A stretch of DNA of 32,000 bases from positions 3,630,001-3,662,000 of the forward strand of contig NZ_CP066018.1 of NCBI RefSeq assembly GCF_016127575.1, given 5' to 3'. Source of the DNA: Cupriavidus necator. GTDB taxonomy: Bacteria > Pseudomonadota > Gammaproteobacteria > Burkholderiales > Burkholderiaceae. Below the pieces are notes generated by a model, which saw only the letters and a list, made by a program, of their open reading frames with translations, did no database searches and was not told the DNA's origin. The translations under genes and the position numbers were made by a program. Positions within the stretch are counted from its first letter, which is position 1. Each line of letters begins with the position of its first letter. Below, one piece after another: positions 2,346 through 29,565 of this stretch.

Positions 2346-2903
2346 TCAAACGCTCTTGCGTGAGCCCGCGCGCGTAGGCGCAGCCCTTTCGCCCCGCCGG
2401 TTGGCCGCACGATCCGACAGCCAGTTGACAACCTGCACCCCGTAGCTGGCCGGCGTCTTGTCATTGACGCGCTGAGAAAGGTCGGCCAGGGTATGCCGTT
2501 TCAGTTCCGCTCGCATAGCCTTCTCTGCAGCCTGCATGACAGCCTGAATCGAGCAGACGCCACGCGTCGCCCAACCCGGTGCGTCATCATTGAAGACGGC
2601 ACAGCGCCCGCGGATCTCGAGGCAGTCGAACAGCGGCTTCTCGCCATCGATCGCGACCACGACATCGTGAACGGTAATGTGGTTGGCGGGCCGCGCAAGC
2701 CGGAATCCGCCCTTGATGCCCTCAGTGGCAACTACCAGCTTAGCCTTGGCCAACTTGGTGAACAGCTTGGCCAGGAAATCGTGTGGAACGCCCTGAAGCT
2801 CAGCCAGATCACGGACACTCGCTTCTTCCACGGCCGACTGCGAATGCGTCAGGTACAGCAGGCAGTGGAGGCTGTATTCAACGCCTGTACTGATTTGGGA
2901 CAT
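2346..2903 (-). CDS. Rrf2-family transcriptional regulator
   Basis: 185 aa. The N-terminal wHTH is typical of Rrf2/IscR/NsrR (MSQISTGVEYSLHCLLYL...VRDLAELQGVPHDFLAKLFTKLAKAKLVVATEGIKGGFRLARP). Cys94, Cys101 and Cys117 form a C-X6-C-X15-C cluster region. Palindromic box A sits 5 nt upstream of the ATG. Confidence 0.9.
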   Translation of the reverse strand: MSQISTGVEYSLHCLLYLTHSQSAVEEASVRDLAELQGVPHDFLAKLFTKLAKAKLVVATEGIKGGFRLARPANHITVHDVVVAIDGEKPLFDCLEIRGRCAVFNDDAPGWATRGVCSIQAVMQAAEKAMRAELKRHTLADLSQRVNDKTPASYGVQVVNWLSDRAANRRGERAAPTRAGSRKSV

Positions 2904-2907
2904 GGCA

Positions 2908-2932
2908 TACTAGGACTTTGTGTATCGTAGTT
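2908..2932 (-). promoter_or_regulatory. Palindromic box A (TACTAGGA-N9-TCGTAGTT) at the Rrf2 gene start
   Basis: An 8-9-8 inverted repeat with 2 arm mismatches and the same core and 9-nt A/T-rich spacer as boxes B-F. It lies 5 nt upstream of the Rrf2 ATG (2901-2903). No SD sequence is visible, so the mRNA may be leaderless or short-leader. Confidence 0.55.
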
Positions 2933-3101: not shown

Positions 3102-4592
3102 TCAGGATGGTTTCCGCTGCCCCCATCCGCCGCCGAGGCTGCGCACCAGCGACACCGTCGCCGCGGCACGCAAGCCTGCCACCGCATTGGCATCGCGCTG
3201 CGACTGCAGCACGGTGCGATCGGCGTCGATCACGGTCAGGTAGTCGACGGCACCGGCATCGTAGCGGCTGCGCGAGATGCCCTGGGCCCGTTTCGCGCCG
3301 GCCAGGGCGCCGTCGAGCGCCGTGGCCTGCTGGCTGAGCCAGCGCACATCGGCCAGGCCGTCCTCCACCTCACGGAATGCCGACAGCACTGTCTGCCGGT
3401 AGCGCGCCACGCTCTCCTCGTGCGCGGCGCGGGCGCCAGCAAGGCTTGATCGGTTGCGGCCACCGTCGAACACGGTCTGCGCCACCGTCGAACCGACCAG
3501 CGGACCCAGCAGCCATGTGCGCGACGACCACTTGAACAGGTTCGACAGGTCCGACGACTCGAAGCCGAACAGCGCCGTGAGCGAGATGCGCGGGAAAAAC
3601 ACCGCGCGGGCGATGCCGATGCGCGCATTGGCCGCCGCCATCTGGCGTTCCGCCGCCGCAATATCGGGCCGGCGCTCGAGCAGTTCCGACGGCAGCCCCG
3701 CCGGCACGGCCACCGGAGCGGTATCGAACGGCCGGGCGGCGAGTCCGAACTGCGCGGGCGCCACGCCGGTCAGTACGGCCAGTGCATGTTCCTGGTTGGC
3801 GCGGCGGCGCTCGATGCTGGCCAGGCCGGAGCGCGCCGCGCCTAGTTCGCTTTCGGCGCGGGCCGGATCCAGGTCGGTGGCCTCCCCTGCTTCGTACCGC
3901 GTGCGCAGCAGCGACAGCGCGCCCTCACGCAGCCTGATCGTCGCATTGAGCAGCTCGCGGTCACTGTCCAGGGTGCGCAGCGCGAAGTAGGCCTGCGCCA
4001 CGTCGGCCTGCAGCGCCAGCTGCACGGACCGGTACAGTTCCTCGGCACCCCGCTCGTCGGCGCGCGCGGCGTCCACGCTGCTGGCCACGCGGCCGAATAG
4101 GTCGAGTTCGTAGCTGGCGAATGCGCGGGCCTTGAGCACCGTCTGGGGCGCCACGCGCGCGCCATCGGGCAGCCCCTGCGAGGCGGCCGACGGCTGCGAG
4201 CGAGTCGGGTCCAGGCCCACGCTCAGTTGCGGATACCGCGCCGCCTCGGTGGCGCCGGTGAACGCACGCGCCTGCTTCAGGCGCGCCGCCGCCGCGGCCA
4301 GCTCCTGGTTGTGAACGTTGGCTGCATCGATCAGCCGGTCCAGATCGGCATCACCAAACAGCTTCCACCACTCACCGCGCTGCTGGCCTTCGTCCGGCGT
4401 GGCGGTCTTCCATTGCGCGCTCTCGGCCGCGGCGGCCTCGGCTTCCTTGAACGTGGAGGCACTGGGTGTCTCCGGCACCTTGTAGGTCGGCGCCAGCGAG
4501 CAGCCGGCCAGGAGCAGCGCGGCCGCCATGGCCGCAAGCCTTGGCACGTTCCGCTTCGTCGCATCGCTAATGTTATGCATGTCTTTCACCAT
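3102..4592 (-). CDS. RND efflux outer-membrane factor lipoprotein, NodT family (OprN/OpcM-like)
   Basis: The start is taken at MVKDMHNISD...AAMAAALLLAGCSLAPTYKVPE (lipobox LAGC). The ATG shares one base with the stop of the upstream RND gene (TAATG at 4590-4594). The longer 636-aa track ORF is an artefactual 5' extension into the RND gene. Confidence 0.9.
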   Translation of the reverse strand: MVKDMHNISDATKRNVPRLAAMAAALLLAGCSLAPTYKVPETPSASTFKEAEAAAAESAQWKTATPDEGQQRGEWWKLFGDADLDRLIDAANVHNQELAAAAARLKQARAFTGATEAARYPQLSVGLDPTRSQPSAASQGLPDGARVAPQTVLKARAFASYELDLFGRVASSVDAARADERGAEELYRSVQLALQADVAQAYFALRTLDSDRELLNATIRLREGALSLLRTRYEAGEATDLDPARAESELGAARSGLASIERRRANQEHALAVLTGVAPAQFGLAARPFDTAPVAVPAGLPSELLERRPDIAAAERQMAAANARIGIARAVFFPRISLTALFGFESSDLSNLFKWSSRTWLLGPLVGSTVAQTVFDGGRNRSSLAGARAAHEESVARYRQTVLSAFREVEDGLADVRWLSQQATALDGALAGAKRAQGISRSRYDAGAVDYLTVIDADRTVLQSQRDANAVAGLRAAATVSLVRSLGGGWGQRKPS

Positions 4593-7500
4593 TACTCTGC
4601 GGACGCCACGGCGTGCGCGACCTTTGCATCCGTCGACACCGCCGCGCGGCGCTGGCCGCGCGTGGCCAGCAGGCGCAACGCCACATAGAACACCGGCGTC
4701 AGGAACAGTCCGAAGAAGGTCACGCCGAGCATCCCCGCGAACACCGCCACCCCCATGGCCTGGCGCATTTCCGCGCCGGCGCCGCTCGACACCACCAACG
4801 GCACCACGCCCATGATGAAGGCGAACGAGGTCATCAGGATCGGACGCAAGCGCAGGCGGCTGGCCTCGATCGCGGCCTCGACCACGGTGCGGCCGTGATG
4901 CTCCAGCTCGCGCGCGAACTCGACGATCAGGATCGCGTTCTTGGCCGATAGCCCCACCAGCACGATGAAGCCGATCTGCGTGAAGATGTTGTTGTCCCCT
5001 TGCGTCAGCCATACGCCCGTCATGGCAGCCAGCAGGCTCGTCGGCACGATCAGGATCACGGCCAGCGGCAGCGTCAGGCTCTCATACTGGGCAGCCAGCA
5101 CCAGGAACACCAGCAGCACGCACAGCGGGAAGATCCACACACCCGCGTTGCCGGCCAGGATGTCCTGGTAGGTCAGCTCGGTCCATTCGAAGCCGATGCC
5201 CTTCGGCAGGGTTTCGGCAGCGATGCGCTCGGCGGCAGCCTGCGCCTGGCCCGACGAGAAGCCCAGCGCCGGGCCGCCATTCAGGTCGGCGGCAGTGAAG
5301 CCGTTGTAGCGGATCACGCTGTCCGGGCCAAAGCCTTGCTTGACCTGCACCAGCGACGACAGCGGCACCATCTCGCCGCTGGCGCTGCGCGCCTTCAGCT
5401 GCAGGATATCCTCGGCATGCTGGCGGTACTGCGCATCTGCCTGCACCTTGACCTGGTAGGTACGGCCAAACTTGTTGAAGTCGTTGACGTAGGCCGAACC
5501 CAGGTAGGTCTGCAGCGTATCGAACACATCGGTCACCGGCACGCCGAGCTGCTTGGCCTTGGTACGGTCGAGCTGCACATCAAGCTGCGGCACGTTCACC
5601 TGGTAGTTGCTGAAGATGCCGGCAAGCTCAGGCGTGGCGCGCGCCTTGGTCATGAACGAGTTGGTGGCGTCGAACAGGGCGTCATAGCCCAGTGCGGCGC
5701 GGTCCTCGATCATCAGCTTGAAACCGCCGATCGTGCCCAGGTCCTGCACCGGCGGCGGCGGGAACACGGCAATGAACGCGTCCTGGATCGCGCCATACTC
5801 CTTGTTCAGGTCCGCGGCAATGGCCTTGCCCGACAGCTCCTTGCTCTTGCGCTTCTCGAACGGGTCAAGCGTGACAAAGACGATGCCGGCGCTCGGGCTG
5901 TTGGTGAAGCCGTTGATCGACAGGCCCGGGTAGGCAACGGCCGATTCCACGCCCGGATGCTTGAGCGCGATCTCCGACATGCGGCGCGTCACGTCCTCGG
6001 TGCGATCCAACGTAGCGCCGTCGGGCAGCTTGGCAAAGCTCACCAGGTACTGCTTGTCCTGCGCCGGCACGAAGCCCTTCGGCACGAGCTGGAACACGCC
6101 CCAGGCGGCCACCAGCATCACGGCGTAGACGCCAAATACCGAGCCCTTGCGGCGGATCACACCCTTCACGCCACGGCCATAGCTTTCGGAGCTGCGGCCG
6201 AAGAAGCGGTTGAAGCGGACGAAGAACTTGCCGAGGACCTTGTCCATGCCACGCGTCAGCCAGTCCTTGGGCGCGTCATGGCTCTTGAGCAGCAGGGCCG
6301 ACAGCGCGGGAGACAGCGTCAGCGAGTTGAAGGCCGAGATGATGGTCGAGATCGAGATGGTCAGCGCGAACTGCTTGTAGAACTGGCCGGTCAGGCCCGT
6401 CATGAAGGCCAGCGGCACGAACACAGCGATCAGCGTCAGCGCGATGGCGATGATGGGGCCGCTGACTTCGCGCATGGCCTTGTAGGTGGCCTCCTTCGGC
6501 GTCAGCCCCTCTTCGATGTTCCGCTCGACGTTCTCGACCACCACGATGGCATCGTCGACCACGATACCGATGGCCAGCACCAGCCCAAATAGCGACAGCG
6601 CATTGATCGAGAAGCCGAACGCATGCATCAGCCCGAAGGTACCGACAATCGACACCGGCACCGCCAGCAGCGGGATGATCGACGCGCGCCACGTCTGCAG
6701 GAACAGGATCACCACCAGCACCACCAGCACGATCGCCTCGAACAGCGTGTGGACCACCGCCTCGATGCTGTGGCGCACGAACTGCGTGGGGTCATAGACG
6801 ATGCTGTAGGCCACGCCTTCCGGCATGTTCTGCTTCAGCTCGGCCATGGTCTTGCGCACCTCGTTCGAGATCTCGATCGCGTTCGCCCCCGGTGACTGGA
6901 AGATCAGCAGTGACAGGGCGGACTTGTTGTCCAGCTGCGAACGCAGCGCGTATTCCGAAGCACCCAGTTCGATGCGCGCAATGTCCTTCAGGTACGTGAC
7001 CACACCGTCAGGCGAGGTCTTGGCGATGATGTCGCCGAACTCTTCCACGGTCTGCAGCCGGCCCTGCGCGTTCACCGACAGCTGCAGGTCGGTGCCCGGC
7101 AGCGTCGGCGACTGGCCGAGCACGCCTGCCGCCACCTGCACGTTCTGCTCGCGGATGGCGCGCACCACGTCCGACGCGGCGAGCCCGCGCTCGGCGATCT
7201 TCTCCGGATTCAGCCACACTCGCATCGAGTAGTCACCCGCGCCGAACAACCGCACCTGGCCGACGCCCTGGATCCGCGCGATGCGGTCCTTCACGTTGAT
7301 CAGCGCGTAGTTGCGCAGATAGGTCGTGTCATAGCGGTCGTTGGGCGAGACCAGGTGCACCACCATGGTCAGGTCGGGCGAACTCTTGACCGTGGTGATG
7401 CCCAGGCGGCGCACATCTTCCGGCAGGCGCGGCTCGGCCTGCGAGACACGGTTCTGCACGAGCTGCTGGGCCTTGTCCGGATCGGTGCCCAGCTTGAAGG

Positions 7501-7783
7501 TCACCGTCAGCGTCAGCGTGCCGTCGGTATTCGCCTGCGAGTTCATGTAGAGCATGTCCTCGACGCCGTTGATCTGCTCTTCCAGCGGCGTGGCCACGGT
7601 TTCGGCGATCACCTTAGGGTTGGCGCCCGGGAACTGCGCGCGCACCACCACTGACGGCGGCACCACTTCCGGGTACTCCGAGACCGGCAAATTGAACATC
7701 GAGATGGCGCCGATCAGGAAGATCAGCACCGACAGCACGCCCGCGAAGATCGGGCGGTCGACAAAAAATTTCGAGAAATTCAT
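4592..7783 (-). CDS. RND multidrug efflux permease, HAE1 family (MexF/BpeF/CeoB-like)
   Basis: 1063 aa, uninterrupted. The N-terminus MNFSKFFVDRPIFAGVLSVLIFLIGAISMFNLPVSEYPEVVPPSVVVRAQFPGANPKVIAETVATPLEE closely follows MexF-type pumps as I remember them. It shows the 12-TM AcrB-like architecture. Confidence 0.95.
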   Translation of the reverse strand: MNFSKFFVDRPIFAGVLSVLIFLIGAISMFNLPVSEYPEVVPPSVVVRAQFPGANPKVIAETVATPLEEQINGVEDMLYMNSQANTDGTLTLTVTFKLGTDPDKAQQLVQNRVSQAEPRLPEDVRRLGITTVKSSPDLTMVVHLVSPNDRYDTTYLRNYALINVKDRIARIQGVGQVRLFGAGDYSMRVWLNPEKIAERGLAASDVVRAIREQNVQVAAGVLGQSPTLPGTDLQLSVNAQGRLQTVEEFGDIIAKTSPDGVVTYLKDIARIELGASEYALRSQLDNKSALSLLIFQSPGANAIEISNEVRKTMAELKQNMPEGVAYSIVYDPTQFVRHSIEAVVHTLFEAIVLVVLVVILFLQTWRASIIPLLAVPVSIVGTFGLMHAFGFSINALSLFGLVLAIGIVVDDAIVVVENVERNIEEGLTPKEATYKAMREVSGPIIAIALTLIAVFVPLAFMTGLTGQFYKQFALTISISTIISAFNSLTLSPALSALLLKSHDAPKDWLTRGMDKVLGKFFVRFNRFFGRSSESYGRGVKGVIRRKGSVFGVYAVMLVAAWGVFQLVPKGFVPAQDKQYLVSFAKLPDGATLDRTEDVTRRMSEIALKHPGVESAVAYPGLSINGFTNSPSAGIVFVTLDPFEKRKSKELSGKAIAADLNKEYGAIQDAFIAVFPPPPVQDLGTIGGFKLMIEDRAALGYDALFDATNSFMTKARATPELAGIFSNYQVNVPQLDVQLDRTKAKQLGVPVTDVFDTLQTYLGSAYVNDFNKFGRTYQVKVQADAQYRQHAEDILQLKARSASGEMVPLSSLVQVKQGFGPDSVIRYNGFTAADLNGGPALGFSSGQAQAAAERIAAETLPKGIGFEWTELTYQDILAGNAGVWIFPLCVLLVFLVLAAQYESLTLPLAVILIVPTSLLAAMTGVWLTQGDNNIFTQIGFIVLVGLSAKNAILIVEFARELEHHGRTVVEAAIEASRLRLRPILMTSFAFIMGVVPLVVSSGAGAEMRQAMGVAVFAGMLGVTFFGLFLTPVFYVALRLLATRGQRRAAVSTDAKVAHAVASAE

Positions 7784-7885
7784 CTTGGTCTCGGCGAAAG
7801 CAGTCCCCGCTGGCGGTCCGCCGGAGCGGACGCCAGTGCAATCTCAGGGGAGAATTCCAGTTCGGTCTGTGGCGGAGGGTGGGAC

Positions 7886-9127
7886 TCAGCTCATCCTGGC
7901 CTTTCCGGCCTTCGCGTCAGCTGCGGCCTGCTTGCGATCCGTCGTGCTGCCACGCGACTCCAGTTCGCTGCGGTAGGCCATCGCTACCGGCTTCGGGGTC
8001 ACGGTGTCGCCGGGGCGCACGCGCGTCAGGCCATTCACGACGATGTTCTCGCCCGGTCGCAGACCCTTGCGGATCACACGCAGCCCTTCGTACGTCGGCC
8101 CCAGTTCGACTTCGCGGTACGCGAGCTTGTTGGCCTTTTCCACCAGGAGCACGAACTTCTTGCCCTGGTCGGTGCCTATGGCGCGATCGTTGACCAGCGC
8201 GGCGGGATATGGCGAGCCGCCGCCGAGCTTGACCTTCGCGTACAGGCCCGGCAGCAGGCGGCGGTCCTCATTGTCGAAGACGGCGCGCACGCGGATCGTA
8301 CCGCTGCGCGTGTCGAGCCGGTTGTCGATCGAATGAATCCGGCCCTTGTGCGGATTGCCATCCTCGTTGGCCAGGCCCAGGAATACCGGCAGGTCTCCCT
8401 TGCCGCCACCAGCGCCCGGCGTCGTGTAGCGCAGGTAGCTCTGCTCGTCGACATCGAAGCTCGCGTACACCGGCGAGACCGATACCACCGTGGTCAGCGG
8501 CGGCGATGCCGCGCCGGCCGCCACAAGGTTTCCCACCGTGATCTCGGCACGCGACACCCGGCCCGTGACCGGTGCAACGACGCGCGTGTAGCCCAGGTTC
8601 AGCTTCGCCACCTCCAGCGCCGCCTGCGCACCACGGACGTCGGCCGACGTCTCGCTGGCCGCGTTGATGCGCTCATCGAACTCGCGGCGCGAGATCGCGT
8701 TATCGTCGAGCAGGCGTTGCGCGCGCGCCTTCTCGGTCTGTGCATGCGATGCACGTACCTGCGCCGCTGCCAGTACCGCCTCGGCGCGCGCCACTTCGGC
8801 CGCATACGAGCGCGGATCGATCGTGAACAGCGGGTCGCCCTTCGTCACGATCGAGCCATCGCGGAAATGCACCGTTTCGATCGCGCCGGACACACGTGGA
8901 CGGATCTCAACACGATCCACAGCCTCGATGCGGCCCGAGAATTCATCCCATTCGGTGATGATGGTCTGGCCCACCACTGCCGCCACTTCCACCGCCGGGG
9001 TCGGCGGCGGCATGGTCGCCTGTGCTTCCCCGCCGTGCCAGGGACGCAGTACCGAGGCTGCCACGCCGGCCCCCAGGATTGCCACGAAGGCAATGGCGAG
9101 CAGTGTGTGTCGAGACTTGCGATTCAT
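7886..9127 (-). CDS. RND efflux periplasmic adaptor (MFP, MexE-like)
   Basis: 413 aa with an N-terminal membrane anchor, coiled-coil hairpin and beta-barrel regions typical of the HlyD/AcrA family. A GGAG RBS lies 8 nt upstream. It is the first gene of the MFP-RND-OMF operon. Confidence 0.9.
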   Translation of the reverse strand: MNRKSRHTLLAIAFVAILGAGVAASVLRPWHGGEAQATMPPPTPAVEVAAVVGQTIITEWDEFSGRIEAVDRVEIRPRVSGAIETVHFRDGSIVTKGDPLFTIDPRSYAAEVARAEAVLAAAQVRASHAQTEKARAQRLLDDNAISRREFDERINAASETSADVRGAQAALEVAKLNLGYTRVVAPVTGRVSRAEITVGNLVAAGAASPPLTTVVSVSPVYASFDVDEQSYLRYTTPGAGGGKGDLPVFLGLANEDGNPHKGRIHSIDNRLDTRSGTIRVRAVFDNEDRRLLPGLYAKVKLGGGSPYPAALVNDRAIGTDQGKKFVLLVEKANKLAYREVELGPTYEGLRVIRKGLRPGENIVVNGLTRVRPGDTVTPKPVAMAYRSELESRGSTTDRKQAAADAKAGKARMS

Positions 9128-9200
9128 CTTTCTTCACTCCATACATCTTTGAGATTCCAGAGTCGAGTCTTACCCCCGTGCAGCGCATCTTGGCATATCG

Positions 9201-9243
9201 GCGACCCATAACTACGATTATATTAGTCGTAGTTATGGGTCGC
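9201..9243 (-). promoter_or_regulatory. Palindromic box B, perfect 17-9-17, overlapping a sigma70-like promoter of the efflux operon
   Basis: GCGACCCATAACTACGA-TTATATTAG-TCGTAGTTATGGGTCGC, with perfectly complementary arms. On the minus strand the -35 is TTGCGA (9240-9245). A 17-nt spacer follows, then -10 TATAAT (9217-9222). The box lies 75 nt upstream of the MFP start. Confidence 0.75.
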
Positions 9244-9428
9244 AAGATATTTCTTGATCGAGCAACGTTGTCCACCTGCATGTGCAGCGGTGAGATCGTG
9301 TCGCGGGCGTTGTATGAAGTTGAGCCGACAACCTCCGCGTCGTCTTTCTGCGGCCGACCGGGGCCGGTGCGCGCGTCCAGCCCATCACGCCGGATCTGGC
9401 GAAGCGGCTTCGGAGGTTGCGCGGATGC

Positions 9429-10271
9429 TTACGCGTTGCGTAGCGACCGGAACCCGGAGCGCAATTCGGCACTGAATAGCTCTGGCTCCTCCCAGGCGGC
9501 AAAGTGACCGCCCTTCTCGACGCGGCGATAGTAGATCAGGTTTTGATAGGCTCGCTCCAACCACTGTTTTGGCGGCCGGTAGACCTCGCCAGGGAAAACC
9601 GTCACTGCCACCGGAACGGTGATGGGAGAATTCATTGCCGGGGCGCTACTGGCTTCCCAGTAGATCCGTCCGCTCGACTCGCCTGTATTTGTGAGCCAAG
9701 AGAGCGAGATGTTGTCAAGGATCGCATTACGGCCGAGTGCTCGCTCCGGATCGCCACGCGTGAATACCCAGTCGGCCTGCTTGTCATAGATCCACGCTGT
9801 CAGCCCCACTGGCGAATCGGCCAGGCCAAAGGCAATGGTTTGCGGCCGCGTTTGCATGATGGCCGCGTAACCGAATCCCCGGTTGAGAAAATCCCTCGCG
9901 TCGTCGAACACTTGCCTTTCTTCAGGGGTCAGGATTGACGGCGCAGGGTCCCCGCTTTTCAGCGCCATGGCTATCGCCGGTGGCAACGTGGTGGCGCGCT
10001 CGATGCGGTTGACGTGGATGCCAAGCAGCCCTTCAGGCGCCAGACTGCCAAGAGCGTCGGAGATGATTGCGCCCCAGTCGCCTCCCTGCGAAACGTAGCG
10101 CGCATATCCGAGCCGCTTCATCAGCACGTCCCACGCGCGGGCGATGCGGCCCGGGTGCCAGCCAGTGTCCGTGGGCTTCTGTGAGAAGCCGAAGCCGGGA
10201 ACCGACGGAATCACGAGATGAAACGCATCGTCCGCGCTGCCGCCATGCGCTGTCGGGTCCGTCAGCGACGG
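9429..10271 (-). pseudogene. Epoxide hydrolase (alpha/beta hydrolase), 5'-truncated
   Basis: Only the hydrolase core is present (...LTDPTAHGGSADDAFHLVIPSVPGFGFS...GGDWGAIIS...FAAWEEPELFSAELR). The frame is open to ~10271. The ~110-aa N-terminal epoxide-hydrolase domain and a plausible start are absent. Confidence 0.75.
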
Positions 10272-10930
10272 CGCCGCGCTTCGATCCCGCGCAGGCTCGG
10301 CGGACCTTTACGCTGGCCCTGTCTGATGTTGGAGAAGCGGCATTCCTGCCGCGCCTGCTGGCCCGGCTCATGAAAGAGGCGCCGCATGTGGACGTGCGTA
10401 CGGTGTCGGCACGGCACACGGACATCATGGATCAGCTCGAACGCGGCAGGATCGACCTGGCCATTGGCTACTATCCGGATCTGGGCGGTTCGGACGTATT
10501 CCAGCAGCGCCTGTTCCGGCATGGCTTCGTGTGCCTGGCGCGCAAGAATCACCCAGTCGCACGCGGACGCATGACGGCGCAACAGTTCCGGGAACCGCCT
10601 CATGCGATGATCCAGAACGAAAGCCGCAGCCAGGAGCTGGTCGAGGCGTATCTGCGCCAGCACGGTATCGCACGCCGCGAGATGCTGCGTTCTCCGCATT
10701 TCCTCAGCATTCCGCTCGTGATCGCATCGTCGGATCTGGTCGTCACGGTGCCGCTGCCGGTCGGCGAGCTGTTCGCGCGCATCGCGGATGTACAGGTCCT
10801 TGAGCCACCGTTCCCGATCCCCGCTTTCGATCTCAGGCAGCATTGGCACCGTTGCCAGCATGACGACCCGGGCAATCGCTGGCTGCGGGCGATCACCCAG
10901 GAACTGTTCGGCGAATCTCCTGGCGAGTAG
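10272..10930 (+). pseudogene. LysR-family regulator, substrate-binding domain only (HTH missing)
   Basis: Homology starts at ...FDPAQARRTFTLALSDVGEAAFLPRLLARLMKEAPHVDVRTV and continues to the stop. The ~90-aa N-terminal wHTH is absent. The upstream part of the track ORF (10067-10270) is antisense to the hydrolase and meaningless. Confidence 0.75.
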
Positions 10931-10960
10931 TGGCCCGTGCATCGCATGTGGTTGAAGCAA

Positions 10961-10988
10961 CGAGGGCGATCCATCAGGATCGCCCTCG
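10961..10988. terminator. Bidirectional stem-loop between the LysR remnant and NDH-2-like gene 1
   Basis: 12-bp perfect stem CGAGGGCGATCC / GGATCGCCCTCG with a 4-nt loop. On the minus strand it is followed by TTGCTTC. A related hairpin follows the paralogue at 14428-14454. Confidence 0.6.
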
Positions 10989-11007
10989 TTCATGATTGCT
11001 AGCGCTG

Positions 11008-12219
11008 TCAGGCCACTACCACATAGTGCGGATCGGCCCAAGCCAGCGCCTCGGCACGGTCAGCACTTGGCGGATAGATCCACTCGGTGTTGATCTGCGT
11101 CTTCAGTGCCTTGGCTTCTGCGCCCACCAGCTTCACCTGACGATCCCAGCCTTCGGTGTATACAGCCCCCCACGACCCGAGATCCAAGCAGGTGACATAT
11201 TTCGGCTGGCTGTAAGGAATCGGCGTTGCCCCCAGGAGGTCCGCCGCCACATTATGTCCTGCAATCCGGCCCAGCTTCATCGCGTGCTGACAGGACATCG
11301 CGGCGTGGTTGCCTTCCTCATCGGTGGACGCGTAGGCAACGTCACCAGTAGCGTAGACCGTATCGATGCCTTTGACCTTCAGGTTGCGATCGACATGGAG
11401 CCGCCCGAAGTTGTCGCGCTGCGCAGGAATCTGCGACGTCAGCGCACTGGCGCGCGCGCCGGCGGTCCAGATTACCGTGTCTGTCTCGATGCGCTGACCG
11501 TTCTCGAGCGTAACGCCGTTCGCATCGACCGCCGCGACGCCGGAGCCGAGCTTCCATGTCACACCGAGCTCAGTCAGCGCCTCGGTAATCACCGGACGCG
11601 GGCCGGGACCCAGATCCGGGCCAACGTCGCTGTTGCGCTCAACCATAATCACGTTCACGGCAGCGTCCTTGCCGAACACCTCGCGTAGACGGGCAGGCAT
11701 TTCCGCTGCGGTCTCGATACCGGTGAAGCCGGCACCGGCGATCACTACCGTGTTGCGCGCTACGCTTTCGGGACGACGCGCCAGGCTGGCGAGATGCGCA
11801 TCAAGCGCTGCGGCATCAGCCACCTGGTCTACATTGAACGAATGCTGCTCGAGACCCGGAATCTGCGGCCGGAACAGGCGGCTACCAGCGGCAAGGACCA
11901 GGCGGTCATAGCCGAGCTTACGGCGCGACGTATCGCCACCCAGCCCCACAAGTTCCACTTTCTGGCTTACCACATCAATGCGTTCGACCAGGCCCTGGAT
12001 GAACCTGACGCCCACAGCCTGAAAGATTTCCTGCAGCGGCGCCCTCATGCCGCCTGGGTTCTTCTCATAAAGACGCGGACGCACGTGCAGCTCGGGCTCC
12101 GGCGCGACCAGTACGATCTCCACGTCAGTGCGCCCCACTTCATCCAGAAGGCGGGCCGAACCCAGCGCGCTCCACATGCCGGCGAAGCCGGCACCAATAA
12201 CAACAATACGTTTCGACAT
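11008..12219 (-). CDS. NAD(P)/FAD-dependent oxidoreductase, NDH-2 (type II NADH dehydrogenase)-like, copy 1
   Basis: 403 aa with two Rossmann motifs (VVIGAGFAG and VVIAGAGFTGIETAAEM) and ATGDVAY...QHAMKLGRIAGHNVA. An AGGAG RBS is present. It is a paralogue of 13196-14407. Confidence 0.9.
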   Translation of the reverse strand: MSKRIVVIGAGFAGMWSALGSARLLDEVGRTDVEIVLVAPEPELHVRPRLYEKNPGGMRAPLQEIFQAVGVRFIQGLVERIDVVSQKVELVGLGGDTSRRKLGYDRLVLAAGSRLFRPQIPGLEQHSFNVDQVADAAALDAHLASLARRPESVARNTVVIAGAGFTGIETAAEMPARLREVFGKDAAVNVIMVERNSDVGPDLGPGPRPVITEALTELGVTWKLGSGVAAVDANGVTLENGQRIETDTVIWTAGARASALTSQIPAQRDNFGRLHVDRNLKVKGIDTVYATGDVAYASTDEEGNHAAMSCQHAMKLGRIAGHNVAADLLGATPIPYSQPKYVTCLDLGSWGAVYTEGWDRQVKLVGAEAKALKTQINTEWIYPPSADRAEALAWADPHYVVVA

Positions 12220-12302
12220 GCTTCATGCTCCTGAATCAATGCTCGGTTTCGCGTGACCGGCGAACTCCACAGTTGGCGTATCAGCCTGATCAGCCAGGCG
12301 GC

Positions 12303-12345
12303 GCCCACCGTAACTACGATTGTAATAGTCGTAGTTACGGTGGGC
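12303..12345 (-). promoter_or_regulatory. Palindromic box C1, perfect 17-9-17, overlapping the promoter of NDH-2-like gene 1
   Basis: GCCCACCGTAACTACGA-TTGTAATAG-TCGTAGTTACGGTGGGC. On the minus strand the -35 is TTGCCC (12342-12347). A 17-nt spacer follows, then -10 TACAAT (12319-12324). An A5 tract lies just upstream of the -35. Confidence 0.75.
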
Positions 12346-12442
12346 AAGATTTTTCCGCGACGCCAAGGTCGCGACATTCTCTTGTGCCATCTCGTGCGCT
12401 TTTCACCTGCGCCTTGCACTTCAATCATGTATCGACTATCTT

Positions 12443-12467
12443 TACTACGACTATTGTAATCGTAGTA
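12443..12467 (+). promoter_or_regulatory. Palindromic box C2 (TACTACGA-CTATTGTAA-TCGTAGTA), perfect 8-9-8
   Basis: It shares the core of the other boxes. The box plus ~45 nt upstream (TTGCACTTC...ATCGACTATCTTTACTACGACTAT) is homologous to the box F cassette at 29190-29244. No intact gene follows it on the + strand. Confidence 0.6.
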
Positions 12468-12709
12468 TATTGAGCTGGTGCTTTTCCTGCGTGTGACATT
12501 GCTGGAGCTGACGGACGCGATGCTCTACCAAACCGGGCGGCGCGTCTCCGACCCCGGCAGGCCTACAGCAGGCCACGACGAAGCAAGCGCGCTTGGCGAT
12601 CGAATACCGGCAGCAAATGATCAAGATCAAGGCTCTGGTTGACGATACCCGCCGCACGGCCGAAGAACGGTTGGAGGACATCGCCAAGCTGCTCGAGGGC
12701 CTAGGACGA

Positions 12710-12950
12710 CTACCCCTCATCGCTGTCCACGACAAACACGGCCAGCAGCTTGGCGGGCTTTGACTTGCTCGCGTTGCGGCTAACTGCATGGTGCGATCCC
12801 GGCTCCTCATGGAAGCTCTCGCCCGCCTTGCAGATGCGTTCCGGCCCATTGTCGACCTTGCTCGCAAGGCTGCCAGAGACGACATAGGCATGCCGGTTCC
12901 CTCAGGCACCCGGGTGCATCCAGCCGGTTCTCGTTACAGAGATTCTGTCC
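12710..12950 (-). pseudogene. Cupin-domain protein remnant (decayed paralogue of 29662-30087)
   Basis: The minus-strand translation YVVSGSLASKVDNGPERICKAGESFHEEPGSHHAVSRNASKSKPAKLLAVFVVDSDEG-stop (12710-12886) matches the C-terminal half of the cupin at 29662-30087. Upstream, the metal-binding HYH region is deleted or garbled and the signal peptide is absent. Confidence 0.8.
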
Positions 12951-12967
12951 CTGGTGGGCCGGCGCTT

Positions 12968-12992
12968 AACTGCGATTCATGTAGTCTCAGTA
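12968..12992 (-). promoter_or_regulatory. Degenerate palindromic box F' (AACTGCGA-N9-TCTCAGTA) upstream of the cupin remnant
   Basis: The reverse complement of 12964-13027 aligns with the box F cassette (TTGCACTTC...GATC...GTTACT..GACTA..TGA.CG.AGTTAA.GC). The arms are 6/8 self-complementary and the spacer is 9 nt. Confidence 0.45.
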
Positions 12993-13066
12993 ACAATTGT
13001 GGATTGATCGCTGAAGTGCAAGCCACTCGTGCAGGTCAGCTGGTAGCAGTTGGTAAAAAAAAACTT

Positions 13067-13109
13067 GCATCGCTTAACTACGACTACTATGATCGCAGTT
13101 AAGCGATGC
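13067..13109 (+). promoter_or_regulatory. Palindromic box D, 17-9-17 (1 mismatch), overlapping the promoter of NDH-2-like gene 2
   Basis: GCATCGCTTAACTACGA-CTACTATGA-TCGCAGTTAAGCGATGC. The -35 is TTGCAT (13065-13070). A 17-nt spacer follows, then -10 TATGAT (13088-13093). An A9 tract (13055-13063) lies just upstream of the -35. Confidence 0.75.
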
Positions 13110-13195: not shown

Positions 13196-14407
13196 ATGTC
13201 CAAACGGATTCTTGTCATTGGCGCCGGCTTTGCCGGCATGTGGAGCGCGCTGGCTTCGGCCCGTTTGCTTGACCAGGTTGGGCGCACCGATGTGGAGATC
13301 GCCCTTGTCGCACCGAAGCCGGAACTGCACATCCGCCCTCGCCTCTACGAGCAGAATCCGAACGGGATGAAGGCGCCGTTGCAGGACATCTTCCAGGCCG
13401 TTGGCGTCAGGTTCATCCAGGGCAAGGTGGAGCACATCGATGTCGCAAACCAGACGGTGAGCGTTGCGGGCGTTGGCGCTGATACGCCGCGCCAGCGCAT
13501 CAGCTATGACCGTCTGGTGCTTGCTGCAGGAAGCCGCCTGTTCCGGCCGCAGATCCCAGGGCTGGACCAGCATGCCTTCAATGTCGACCAGGTCGCTGAC
13601 GCCGCGGAGCTTGAAGCCCATATCCATGGACTGGCCGACCGCCGGGAGAGCGCCGGCCGCAATACGGTGGTAATCGCGGGTGCCGGCTTTACCGGTATCG
13701 AGACGGCTGCCGAAATGCCGGCTCGCCTCCGCGAAGTCCTGGGCGAGGACGCTGCCGTGAGCGTGATCATGGTCGAGCGAAATGCCGCGATCGGCCCTGA
13801 CCTGGGCGAGGGTCCGCGGCCGGTCATCACGCAGGCGCTGGCCGAGCTTGGGGTGACATGGAAGCTCGGCTCGGGTGTCGCGGCTGTCGATGCGAAAGGC
13901 GTCATGCTCGAGAATGGGGAGCGCATCGAGGCAGACACCGTGATCTGGACGGCGGGCGCCCGGGCCAACGAACTCACCGCACAGATTCCGGCAGAGCGGG
14001 ACAACTTTGGCCGGCTGCATGTTGACCGCAACCTGAAGGTCAAGGGGGTCGAGGCGGTGTTCGCCACCGGCGACTGCGCCTATGCCGCGACCGATGACGA
14101 AGGCAACTTCGCCACCATGTCTTGCCAGCACGCCATGAATCTGGGCCGCTCGGCCGGCCACAACGTGGCAGCAGACCTGGTGGGCGCGGCGCCAATCCCT
14201 TACAGCCAGCCGAAGTACGTGACCTGCCTGGACCTGGGGCCCTGGGGCGCTGTCTACACGGAAGGCTGGAACCGCCAGGTGAAGATGACGGGCGGCGTCG
14301 CCAAGGCGCTGAAGACGCGGATCAATACCGAGTGGATCTATCCTCCGAGCGCGAATCGTGAAGAAGCGCTTGCCTTGGCTGACCCACGGTTCATCGTCGT
14401 GGCCTGA
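13196..14407 (+). CDS. NAD(P)/FAD-dependent oxidoreductase, NDH-2-like, copy 2
   Basis: 403 aa, the same length as copy 1. By eye roughly four-fifths of residues are identical. It has a homologous RBS context (TTCAGGAGTATGAAAG-ATG) and a homologous terminator hairpin. Confidence 0.9.
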   Translation: MSKRILVIGAGFAGMWSALASARLLDQVGRTDVEIALVAPKPELHIRPRLYEQNPNGMKAPLQDIFQAVGVRFIQGKVEHIDVANQTVSVAGVGADTPRQRISYDRLVLAAGSRLFRPQIPGLDQHAFNVDQVADAAELEAHIHGLADRRESAGRNTVVIAGAGFTGIETAAEMPARLREVLGEDAAVSVIMVERNAAIGPDLGEGPRPVITQALAELGVTWKLGSGVAAVDAKGVMLENGERIEADTVIWTAGARANELTAQIPAERDNFGRLHVDRNLKVKGVEAVFATGDCAYAATDDEGNFATMSCQHAMNLGRSAGHNVAADLVGAAPIPYSQPKYVTCLDLGPWGAVYTEGWNRQVKMTGGVAKALKTRINTEWIYPPSANREEALALADPRFIVVA

Positions 14408-26311: not shown

Positions 26312-29008
<2,697 letters not shown>

Positions 29009-29048: not shown

Positions 29049-29083
29049 GCGATAACTACGACTTTACAAGTCTTAGTTATCGC
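29049..29083 (-). promoter_or_regulatory. Palindromic box E (13-9-13, 1 mismatch) upstream of aceE
   Basis: GCGATAACTACGA-CTTTACAAG-TCTTAGTTATCGC, lying 41-75 nt upstream of the aceE GTG. The promoter hexamers are less canonical than at boxes B, C1 and D. Confidence 0.65.
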
Positions 29084-29217
29084 GGAGACTTCAGGGCAAA
29101 CCATGGGCTGTTCATGTCTGGCACTTGACGGGAAACAGAGCTGCAAGATCTTTTCCCGATGCTTGTCTCGGCGCAGTCCATGTGCTCGCTTGCACTTCGA
29201 TGGACGATCGACTATCG

Positions 29218-29244
29218 TTACTACGACTATAATGATCGTAGTTA
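29218..29244 (+). promoter_or_regulatory. Palindromic box F (TTACTACGA-CTATAATGA-TCGTAGTTA) upstream of the cupin operon
   Basis: The core arms are 7 bp perfect. A perfect TATAAT (29228-29233) sits inside the 9-nt spacer. A GGAG RBS (29253-29256) and the ATG at 29263 follow. Confidence 0.7.
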
Positions 29245-29262: not shown

Positions 29263-29565
29263 ATGAAACCGATCCACTGGATCAGCGCACTTGGCGCCAC
29301 CGCGATCCTGTCCACCGGCGTGACCGCATGGGCATCCGCTTCCGACCTGGCCTGGGCGACCAGCCGCCCCATGACTGCCGGCCACGACCTGAAAGGCGTA
29401 TCGACGCAACCGGGTCACACCCGCAGCCTCCGCGATACGCTGATCGCCGGCCAGGACCTGAGCGGCGTTTCCGCTACGCCAAGCCGCGCCGGCGAGACCG
29501 GCGCGGGGGATGAAGCCAGCAAGGCTTCGGGGCCGCCCAACAAATCGCTGCCTCGGCTCGCCTGA
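29263..29565 (+). CDS. Small secreted protein with an internal repeat
   Basis: 100 aa with a signal peptide (MKPIHWISALGATAILSTGVTAWA). Two related units are present: AGHDLKGVSTQPG and AGQDLSGVSATPS. I recognise no family. It is the first ORF after box F. Confidence 0.5.
   Translation: MKPIHWISALGATAILSTGVTAWASASDLAWATSRPMTAGHDLKGVSTQPGHTRSLRDTLIAGQDLSGVSATPSRAGETGAGDEASKASGPPNKSLPRLA

Follow-up and report, generated by a model that had tools for sequence, protein, structure and literature searches.

How can the flanks of an operator differ from site to site and still be self-complementary at each? The question is raised by three boxes in the window analysed here, a stretch of 32,000 nucleotides from Cupriavidus necator (contig NZ_CP066018.1). 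Boxes B, C1 and D are 17-9-17 palindromes with the 8-bp core AACTACGA-N9-TCGTAGTT in common, while their outer 9-bp arms differ between the three and are self-complementary in each, just as a sequence-only reading had described, including a single mismatch in D, which falls in the core. That reading also argued that a plain homodimer operator does not predict symmetric flanks that are not conserved, a point that holds. The boxes of the window are the following.

Box B, 9201..9243, minus strand: 17-9-17 palindrome, GCGACCCAT-AACTACGA-ttatattag-TCGTAGTT-ATGGGTCGC; promoter-proximal arm 9235-9243, distal arm 9201-9209; predicted operator and promoter of the RND efflux operon.
Box C1, 12303..12345, minus strand: perfect 17-9-17 palindrome, GCCCACCGT-AACTACGA-ttgtaatag-TCGTAGTT-ACGGTGGGC; predicted operator and promoter of the NDH-2-like gene 11008-12219.
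Box D, 13067..13109, plus strand: 17-9-17 palindrome with one core mismatch (TCGCAGTT), GCATCGCTT-AACTACGA-ctactatga-TCGCAGTT-AAGCGATGC; predicted operator and promoter of the NDH-2-like gene 13196-14407.
Box E, 29049..29083, minus strand: 13-9-13 (16-3-16) palindrome upstream of the pyruvate dehydrogenase E1 gene 26312-29008 (Pfam).
Box A, 2908..2932, minus strand: core-only, 4 nt upstream of the start codon of the Rrf2 gene, the autoregulation of which is presumed; outer symmetry 1/9.
Box C2, 12443..12467, plus strand: core-only, divergent from C1.
Box F, 29219..29243, plus strand: core-only, upstream of ORF 29263-29565, then cupin and CMD genes (gene order in relatives).
F', 12968..12992, no strand assigned: doubtful degenerate box with four core mismatches.

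The exact core 8-mer occurs 8 times (0.17 expected) and the 25-bp pattern, with at most three mismatches, 7 times (0.03 expected). Outside the core, pairs 1-9 are complementary and pair 10 is mismatched in each of B, C1 and D, whose arms agree with one another at only 4-5 of 9 bases; box B can alternatively be read as 20-3-20 with one mismatch. Box E has the 13-bp arms (GCGAT outer) already noted, with just five outer pairs and one core mismatch. Folded as single-stranded DNA, the hairpins reach -15 to -20 kcal/mol (z = -7 to -11.5), against about -5 for core-only boxes. The latter, A, C2 and F, hold the core and lack outer symmetry (1-3/9), which is thus missing from 3 of the 7 boxes of the same regulon in the same cell. 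The flank of box A is coding sequence, the distal flank of F contains the ribosome-binding site, and the gene downstream of C2 has been lost to a Tn3-family remnant; the distal flanks of the asymmetric boxes A and F thus enclose a start codon or ribosome-binding site, and the symmetric boxes have a 5'UTR of 74-87 nt past the distal arm. The A-to-G change on both arms of F', which had been called compensatory, is indistinguishable from chance, since two sites with four core mismatches are seen in the window and about 0.33 are expected. The G in the core of box D is uncompensated, sampled C. neocaledonicus-group and C. oxalaticus orthologs having TCGTAGTT.

The regulator and the genes that the boxes would control are these.

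Rrf2-family regulator, RsrR-like, 185 aa, 2346..2903, minus strand: Pfam Rrf2 1.3e-31; PDB 6HSD at 6e-24.
RND efflux operon, 3102..9127, minus strand, downstream of box B: MFP 7886-9127, RND pump 4592-7783, outer-membrane factor ending at about 3102.
NDH-2-like FAD/NAD(P) oxidoreductase, paralog a, 11008..12219, minus strand: predicted target of C1.
NDH-2-like FAD/NAD(P) oxidoreductase, paralog b, 13196..14407, plus strand: predicted target of D; 100% identical to a C. necator protein.

The best solved homolog of the regulator is RsrR (6HSD), and its residues E9, H13, C94 and C117 align with E8, H12, C90 and C110 of RsrR, which we take to be the cluster ligands, conserved in the Cupriavidus protein. 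Among 119 scanned sites (Pseudomonas, Burkholderia, Paraburkholderia, Cupriavidus, Sinorhizobium and enterics), the exact core adjoins an Rrf2 gene and/or an NDH-2-like gene at 67, and the linkage of the regulator gene to the box extends across Proteobacteria. The core is the predicted operator of the adjacent RsrR-like Rrf2 regulator, and the inner 8 bp would, as had been proposed, be the protein-read site common to all boxes. The class-1 sites of RsrR, itself an Rrf2 regulator although from Streptomyces venezuelae and not from a proteobacterium, are given in the available part of their description as 11-3-11 inverted repeats (PMC5015018), and the present boxes share with them, and with the other 25-bp repeats of the family (IscR type 1, NsrR), a 25-bp dyad readable as 11-3-11; in both systems, too, they lie across promoters that serve oxidoreductase genes of the NAD(P)H/quinone type and the regulator's own gene. 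This likeness concerns geometry and not the half-site sequence AACTACGA, the RsrR motif appearing in that part of the source as a figure only; the same part makes no mention of 17-bp arms with site-specific outer symmetry, a feature of the C. necator boxes. By consensus, the boxes overlie putative sigma-70-type promoters, with the -10 in the 9-bp centre and the -35 (TTGC..) across the outer arm end: TTGCGA-17-TATAAT in B (minus strand, 9245..9217), TTGCCC-17-TACAAT in C1 (minus strand, 12347..12319) and, in D, TTGCAT (13065-13070) and TATGAT (13088-13093) after an A9 tract, the D hexamers being read from the sequence and TTGCAT lying under the 4/6 threshold of the promoter scan. TTG stands at the same position in 73 unique sites, and transcription would start at the boxes.

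Of those 73 sites, 8, 3, 3 and 7 have 9, 8, 7 and 6 complementary pairs out of 9, against 0.05, 0.36, 1.3 and 3.2 expected when arms are re-paired between sites; symmetry of at least 7/9 is found in only 14 of the 73 comparable sites, with 1.75 expected by chance. Covariation between mirrored positions, which the sequence-only reading had put forward for study in orthologous boxes, was found across the 73 sites, with a score of 0.150 against 0.090 +/- 0.008 in shuffles (exceeded in 0 of 500) and above every slid control. The symmetry is missing from most orthologs. It is likewise missing from most sites besides B, C1 and D, and Pseudomonas sites, from equally GC-rich genomes, have essentially none, while long-arm sites have nearly no internal mismatches. 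Near-perfect arms contain nine mismatches in all, five of them G.T when read on the promoter strand.

Comparison of orthologous sequences points to outer symmetry that is young and lineage-specific. All seven distinct box-B orthologous sequences are asymmetric (2-5/9), and so are D orthologs past about 0.13 synonymous divergence, those at about 0.35 four-fold-site divergence and two with 88-90% protein identity having 2-5/9; the C1 ortholog of strain WKF15 has 6/9. With most orthologs and most other sites lacking the symmetry, it is hard to see it as a conserved requirement of structure or protein contact. Five mirrored changes were found in total, three pairs in D, one in C1 and one in Burkholderia, with no broken pairs in those lineages. 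At D, H16 (GCATCGCTT/AAGCGATGC) and C. oxalaticus (GCGCCGCAT/ATGCGGCGC) show three mirrored differences at only 8% four-fold-site divergence; at C1, H16 (GCCCACCGT/ACGGTGGGC) and L158 (GCCTACCGT/ACGGTAGGC) differ by one mirrored pair at 0.8% divergence; and Burkholderia L003 and L029 differ by one mirrored change at 25% synonymous divergence, across which the perfect palindrome is kept. Mirrored pairs number 4 against about 1 expected, and the arms outpace nearby four-fold sites or UTR sequence. On the distal side of box B, a single 6-nt deletion converts the flank found in the closest ortholog, ATGGGT[TCGGGG]CGCCGATATGCC, into the ATGGGTCGCCGATATGCC of H16, and the proximal arm differs between H16 (GCGACCCAT) and oxalaticus (GCGCTTCAT) by three adjacent changes, the exact complement of the distal GGGT; the other orthologous arms (GCGCTTTAT in two genomes, GCGTCTTGT and GCGCACTTT) are 4-5 positions off H16, these three included. 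C1 also has a 6-nt length change, precisely at the arm boundary. Of the three explanations first offered, the copying of one arm from the other is favoured by these templated changes and the deletion in box B, and a lasting need for DNA structure or protein contact is not.

Quasi-palindrome correction by replication template switching, the Ripley model, with E. coli hotspots such as thyA, is probably the best explanation. The 25-bp operator (AACTACGA-N9-TCGTAGTT, of the 11-3-11 type) of the neighbouring repressor would span the sigma-70 promoter, its half-sites flanking the -10 and the -35 overlapping the outer end of the upstream arm, and the protein would read the core alone. The core inverted repeat would let the nascent strand fold back on itself in replication and use one arm's flank as the template for the other's, the weakly constrained flanks being where such copying could act. 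Return to the normal template would require a second patch of complementarity, and this outer anchor could come from the invariant G-C of the -35 TTGC where a GC chances to face it in the 5'UTR flank, which would explain why the symmetry ends at 17 bp and never takes in the -35 TT. Once the stem is long, a new mutation in one arm would soon be erased or copied across, so that the arms would evolve in concert and look compensatory without selection on structure, the outer symmetry itself being, we infer, nearly neutral.

There are precedents for such events. In Proteobacteria, template switching turns imperfect inverted repeats into perfect ones (Lavi et al. 2018, PMC5941160), and there as here perfect repeats are over-represented and multi-nucleotide or indel events equal the reverse complement of the other arm; unlike that case, the C. 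necator repeats appear to have started from a functional operator and to be limited by an element of the promoter, and they show repeated concerted evolution across species and not laboratory mutations. Template switching also makes and maintains hairpin stems with multi-base "compensatory" changes (Monttinen and Loytynoja 2022, PMC8794818), one-step mirrored changes keeping stems perfect and covariation arising from a mutational mechanism, as in the boxes, although those are functional stems of RNA genes, while the box stem is probably never transcribed whole and may lack function. In yeast promoters, inverted repeats at dimeric transcription-factor sites are homogenised and enlarged by recurrent, lineage-specific template switching (Rozenfeld et al. 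2026, PMC13100816); the boxes differ in being bacterial, in combining a repressor operator with the -10, in growing to a fixed length that the -35 would set, and in being known from sequence.

The strongest competitor, unlikely in our judgement, is selection for a promoter DNA hairpin or cruciform, with template switching merely supplying variants: the -35 and the half-sites of the operator would be hidden in the stems, the -10 would be exposed in the AT-rich loop, and expression would respond to supercoiling or replication besides the repressor. The stability of the stems, an AT-rich centre with merely 3 nt unpaired in B, the near-absence of internal mismatches in long arms, five mirrored changes with no broken pair, and arms of equal length among independent sites and faster than neutral sites, as expected under directional pressure, all agree with it. 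The symmetry is nevertheless missing in most orthologs of the same promoters (7 of 7 distinct box-B sequences, and D outside the closest clade) and is thus not needed to regulate these genes; it is also lacking in Pseudomonas, at most other sites and in three boxes of the regulon itself, and a 9-bp spacer would disfavour cruciform extrusion. Several points do weigh against template switching. Our inference of past mutational events is an indirect one, drawn from a few comparisons between orthologs. The symmetry stops at pair 9-10 in each of four independent site lineages (B, C1, D and the Burkholderia site), for which the anchor model accounts post hoc only; the opposite resolution of an ancestral 6/9 quasi-palindrome is conjecture; and a purely mutational process must invoke constraint on conserved flanks (ATTCGAG...) for Pseudomonas. 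The fast arms also fit positive selection, the Burkholderia palindrome lasting at 25% synonymous divergence is equally compatible with selection, and selection may be what retains the variants, template switching doing no more than supplying them.

A protein reading DNA shape, through the regulator's basic C-terminal tail or a higher-order (dimer-of-dimers) complex, might instead contact the outer arms symmetrically, each site being selected for two equivalent flanks. The symmetry centre is exactly the operator dyad, and Cupriavidus regulators carry a 20-residue Arg/Lys-rich tail; yet the L127 and L130 regulators have the same tail and asymmetric boxes, perfect 18-9-18 boxes occur in Burkholderia alongside regulators with a shorter tail (173 aa), orthologs lack the symmetry, and a protein that reads shape has no need of arms that are complementary base for base. 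The arms moreover extend to +/-21 bp from the dyad, against the approximately 25 bp (11-3-11 sites, PMC5015018) recognised by Rrf2 dimers, a site length from which a single dimer is not expected to reach so far, and we consider this disfavoured reading improbable. A role for the palindromes as stem-loops in RNA (5'UTR structures, processing sites, or terminators or insulators for read-through or antisense transcription) is disfavoured further still. The C1 plus strand and the D minus strand do score as terminator-like, with a stem and then a T-run, mirrored changes are the classical signature of RNA stems, and the G.T mismatches would fit. With the -10 in the loop, however, the cognate transcript would start within the distal half-site and hold one arm only. 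The T-runs, of which box B has none, lie antisense to the regulated gene and are what the UP-element-like A-tract that precedes the -35 gives when read on the opposite strand; neither C1 nor D has a gene ending upstream of it on the relevant strand, and the stems are missing in orthologs. Chance symmetry, or recent copying among the three boxes, which the sequence-only reading would have accepted had most other copies lacked symmetry, as most other sites and orthologs do, does not follow and is effectively refuted, because the excess over chance is large (at least 7/9 in 14 sites, three independent 9/9 matches having a probability of about (1/4)^27) and the arms, agreeing at so few bases, are not mutual copies, mirrored substitutions in orthologs also standing against it.

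For replication template switching, then, our results suggest that one arm of these boxes has repeatedly been copied from the other during DNA replication, mimicking "compensatory" evolution, and on that reading the case is a new example of an already known mutational process.

The palindromes with site-specific, self-complementary outer arms that the sequence-only reading had claimed for boxes B, C1 and D are present in the window sequence, and in all three the outer pairs 1-9 are complementary and pair 10 is not. The candidate operator sites are listed below, the core being the two 8-bp half-sites with their N9 centre (25 bp) and the outer arms the 9 bp flanking the core; the promoters of B and C1 come from a promoter scan and that of D was read from the sequence.

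Candidate operator boxes in the window and their predicted promoters
Box B, 9201-9243: GCGACCCAT-AACTACGA-ttatattag-TCGTAGTT-ATGGGTCGC, palindrome read from the window; promoter TTGCGA-17-TATAAT, minus strand
Box C1, 12303-12345: GCCCACCGT-AACTACGA-ttgtaatag-TCGTAGTT-ACGGTGGGC, palindrome read from the window; promoter TTGCCC-17-TACAAT, minus strand
Box D, 13067-13109: GCATCGCTT-AACTACGA-ctactatga-TCGCAGTT-AAGCGATGC, palindrome with one core mismatch; promoter TTGCAT-17-TATGAT, plus strand, after an A9 tract
Box E, 29049-29083: five outer pairs
Box A, 2908-2932: core only, at the start of the Rrf2 gene 2346-2903
Box C2, 12443-12467: core only
Box F, 29219-29243: core only
F', 12968-12992: four core mismatches

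The shared operator format, AACTACGA-N9-TCGTAGTT, is a dyad of about 25 bp of the 11-3-11 type, with inward extension to a 3-bp centre in boxes B and E. Within the window the 8-mer core occurs eight times against 0.17 expected, and the 25-bp pattern seven times against 0.03; outer symmetry is missing in three of the seven boxes. The core mismatch of D (TCGCAGTT at 13093-13100) is uncompensated and was not found in the sampled D orthologs of the C. neocaledonicus group and C. oxalaticus, which have TCGTAGTT; this A-to-G variant also occurs once in the L162 ortholog of box B, L162 being one of the loci (L-numbers) from related genomes and metagenomes that carry core matches or orthologs. The G of F', which had been taken as compensatory, carries no weight, because about 0.33 such four-mismatch sites are expected by chance. 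A mobile palindromic repeat of the REP or MITE kind was rejected, only the 8-bp core being common and the outer arms differing at about half of their positions between sites, as were boxes that are copies of one another, since their arms differ from site to site.

An exact-core scan with one genome per species returned at least 120 loci, a site sample that is partial and uneven across taxa, and among the matches listed 67 of the 119 scanned sites adjoin an Rrf2 ortholog, an NDH-2-like gene or both, an RND pump also lying near some of these linked boxes. Their hosts belong to several proteobacterial orders (Pseudomonas, Burkholderia, Paraburkholderia, Cupriavidus, Sinorhizobium, and several enterics). 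Given this linkage, the core is the predicted operator of the adjacent RsrR-like Rrf2 regulator, and the linked regulator gene, the dyad length and the overlap with core promoter elements agree with what an operator of this type should display. The gene at 2346-2903 encodes an Rrf2-family regulator of 185 aa, for which RsrR of Streptomyces venezuelae (6HSD, 6e-24) is the best homolog with a solved structure. Its residues E9, H13, C94, and C117 align with E8, H12, C90, and C110 of RsrR, which we take to be the [2Fe-2S] ligands, and this conservation suggests that binding may be cluster- or redox-responsive. The class-1 sites of RsrR have the form of 11-3-11 inverted repeats, and NAD(P)H/quinone oxidoreductases are among its targets (PMC5015018). 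The likely regulon members are NDH-2-like flavoproteins (that of 13196-14407 matches a C. necator protein at 100% identity), the RND pump, PDH E1, and the cupin/CMD genes. Two other window proteins have exact matches, CAJ92878 and CAJ92881, named as C. necator, with ATCC 17699 (strain H16) given as one source.

Several further observations concern the surroundings of the core. Core-only boxes of the C2/F type (TACTACGA...) have a flank near ATCGACTATC(T/G)T in every case examined (window 12434-12442 and 29210-29218; likewise L121, L127, L130, L134, L158, and L159), which yields an extra CGACTAT direct repeat beside the half-site that could be a third half-site or a piece of a promoter element. 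A Tn3-family transposase remnant directly follows box C2 (12469-12900), and the cupin and CMD genes driven by the C2-type promoter in relatives are missing at this place; between boxes B and C1 lie a LysR-gene fragment and a 5'-truncated alpha/beta-hydrolase gene (10260-10930; 9429-10214). The Tn3 remnant and the gene fragments look like rearrangement scars in the regulon. In many Prevotella genomes (metagenome-assembled loci L015, L023, L039, L067, L076, L082, L085, L087, L106, and L108) the same 8-9-8 core also lies within another hairpin, longer and conserved (GCCCAC...GTGGGC), which appears to be an unrelated structured element because no Rrf2 or NDH-2 gene lies near these hairpins.

Each box overlies a predicted sigma-70-type promoter, with consensus -35 and -10 elements and a 17-bp spacer centred on the box in B and C1, and the same layout recurs in 73 related sites. 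The -10 lies inside the 9-bp centre, the G-C that closes the upstream arm on its outer side supplies the "GC" of the -35 TTGC, and the downstream arm falls at about +2 to +10 as reckoned from the promoter consensus, so that the cognate transcript would carry one arm only.

Complementary outer pairs in 73 unique related sites, oriented by the -35 TTG (Watson-Crick pairs over the nine outer positions; expectation from re-pairing arms between sites)
9/9 pairs: 8 sites observed, 0.05 expected
8/9 pairs: 3 sites observed, 0.36 expected
7/9 pairs: 3 sites observed, 1.3 expected
6/9 pairs: 7 sites observed, 3.2 expected

Most of the 73 sites, nearly all those of Pseudomonas included, have 0-4 pairs, and the eight sequences at 9/9 come from four independent site lineages, so that the counts overstate independence. 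In an ungapped alignment of the same sites the covariation score was 0.150 against 0.090 +/- 0.008 in shuffles; it was exceeded by none of 500 shuffles and lay above every slid control. Chance or copying between sites is excluded as the origin of the symmetry by these pair counts and this score. A pattern scan of metagenomes added 23 loci, which inform on distribution and include few close orthologs, and megablast of a plasmid collection gave weak or partial matches only, with one extra box-B ortholog (L164); a second plasmid region fetched (L165) had no box.

The symmetry is recent, lineage-specific and absent from most orthologs. Box-B orthologs comprise seven distinct sequences, from C. oxalaticus, C. 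consociatus, strains amp6 and P-10, a C. necator metagenome-assembled genome and metagenomic contigs, and all have just 2-5/9 pairs. The closest is L162, with a membrane-fusion protein 94.7% identical to that of H16 (the name used here for the window, which is H16-like); its distal flank reads ATGGGT[TCGGGG]CGCCGATATGCC, which minus the bracketed six bases is exactly the ATGGGTCGCCGATATGCC of H16. The proximal arm, on the -35 side, is GCGACCCAT in H16 and GCGCTTCAT, GCGCTTTAT (two genomes), GCGTCTTGT or GCGCACTTT in orthologs, and related genomes hold five distinct asymmetric variants of it. Compared with GCGCTTCAT, the H16 arm carries three adjacent changes (CTT -> ACC) that exactly complement the distal GGT, within GGGT. 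As a separate observation, the box-B 5'UTR of H16 (window 9128-9200) lacks about 108 nt present in L132, L007, L060, and L162, the four orthologs whose 5'UTR is available in full; the 6-nt deletion that gave rise to the distal arm comes on top of this.

Outer arms in the symmetric lineages (proximal..distal, the distal arm being on the downstream, 5'UTR side)
Box D, H16 and C. neocaledonicus group: GCATCGCTT..AAGCGATGC, 9/9
Box D, C. oxalaticus: GCGCCGCAT..ATGCGGCGC, 9/9
Box C1, H16: GCCCACCGT..ACGGTGGGC, 9/9
Box C1, L158: GCCTACCGT..ACGGTAGGC, 9/9
Burkholderia NDH-2 box, L003: GCGCTCGAT..ATCGAGCGC
Burkholderia NDH-2 box, L029: GCGCTCCAT..ATGGAGCGC

The D arms of H16 and C. oxalaticus differ by three mirrored pairs (matched changes in both arms), where 8% of 4-fold sites in the genes and about 10% of the 5'UTR differ; the C1 arms of H16 and L158 differ by one mirrored pair at 0.8% divergence, and those of Burkholderia L003 and L029 by one at 25% synonymous divergence. 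The symmetric lineages of D, C1 and Burkholderia thus total five mirrored changes and zero broken pairs, and these, together with a score above the shuffles, are the covariation between mirrored positions of orthologous boxes that the sequence-only reading had proposed to look for. More distant D orthologs, three at about 0.35 4-fold-site divergence and two at 88-90% protein identity, have 2-5/9 pairs, and outgroup arms, compared with those of box D for the direction of conversion, show a similarity of 4-7/9. In strain WKF15, C1 has 6/9 pairs and is longer by six bases, located precisely at the arm boundary. The C1 and C2 boxes are local hot spots of change: between H16 and L158 their 9-bp centres (12320-12328 and 12451-12459) carry 3-4 differences, and only 0.8% of 4-fold sites differ in the adjoining genes.

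The best supported explanation, drawn from sequence comparison, is quasi-palindrome correction by replication template switching. Among the origins previously put forward, the templating of one arm from the other is the one favored by the multi-nucleotide change in B, the mirrored changes and the asymmetric outgroups. The clustered change in box B is the reverse complement of the opposite arm and is accompanied by the 6-nt deletion relative to L162, C1 shows a length change of 6 nt at the arm boundary, and imperfect inverted repeats in outgroups are found together with mirrored changes between sister lineages. Imperfect inverted repeats are preferentially corrected in Proteobacteria (PMC5941160), stems are created and maintained with multi-base compensatory changes (PMC8794818), and inverted-repeat expansion has been described at transcription-factor sites in yeast promoters (PMC13100816). 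Here, the nascent strand would fold back via the conserved 8-bp half-sites and use the flank of one arm as the template for that of the other, and its return to the template would need a second patch of complementarity. This outer anchor may be pair 8-9, the invariant G-C of the TTGC that ends every upstream arm, whose partner GC would arise by chance or via an indel, as in B and C1. Quasi-palindromes with core and outer anchor around a mismatched interior do occur in the sample (111001011 and 000001111; L159, L040, and L120). Such an anchor would explain the end at 17 bp at independent sites, and the consistent exclusion of the -35 TT from the mirrored stretch. Template switching would likewise explain why symmetry is found at boxes followed by a long 5'UTR under weak constraint (74-87 nt), and the asymmetry where the flank is a start codon (A) or ribosome-binding site (F). 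Once the stem is long, correction would be faster than new mutation and the arms would evolve in concert at a roughly neutral rate; we conjecture that an ancestral 6/9 quasi-palindrome was resolved in opposite ways, which would account for the three differences between D arms at low divergence. Plus-strand GC skew, negative over most of the window, and the order of H16 protein accessions, which is the reverse of window coordinates, give a weak hint that the plus strand of the window is the lagging-strand sequence; on that strand, the arm that seems overwritten in B and C1 would be the 3' one.

Template switching could also be the means by which selection keeps the arms matched, allowing redox-regulated promoters to switch into a hairpin or cruciform with the -35 and both half-sites paired in stems and the -10 in the loop, a DNA-structure layer that would sense supercoiling or replication atop the RsrR-like repressor. 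The stems are stable by ssDNA folding energies, perfectly paired sites are in excess, the palindrome in Burkholderia is rather old, and change in the arms is somewhat faster than at adjacent positions, but we consider this improbable, given that the same promoters work without symmetry in sister species and that the asymmetric boxes of H16 share a cell with the symmetric ones; symmetry was not conserved wherever the promoter is, seven distinct box-B and five more distant D orthologs being asymmetric. Extended protein contact with the outer arms, anticipated earlier as a complex reading shape, is disfavored: the arms extend +/-21 bp from the dyad, base-for-base complementarity is not needed for shape readout, and arm symmetry does not follow the length or charge of the basic C-terminal tail of the regulator. 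A terminator or stem-loop acting in RNA is also disfavored, for although C1 (12303-12355, plus strand) and D (13109-13052, minus strand) score as intrinsic-terminator-like, they do so antisense to the regulated gene, because the promoter's upstream A-tract reads there as a T-run; box B is without a T-run, and the cognate -10 sits in the loop, an arrangement unlike that of a terminator, in which both arms are transcribed on the U-tract strand downstream of a gene.

With template switching as the favored origin of the symmetry, the boxes combine known kinds, an Rrf2-type operator and template-switch homogenisation of inverted repeats, and are not a new kind of element. In the well-studied C. necator H16, they offer a clean natural example of concerted evolution between the arms of an inverted repeat that surrounds a transcription-factor site. 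Replication copying can probably produce textbook "compensatory covariation" without a functional structure, which is a caution for covariation-based structure calls in DNA or RNA. A predicted operator and likely regulon are also defined for an uncharacterised, widely conserved RsrR-like Rrf2 regulator, and the results suggest that long promoter palindromes can grow out from an operator, through multi-base jumps that alter the sequence of the -35, the spacer and the 5'UTR.
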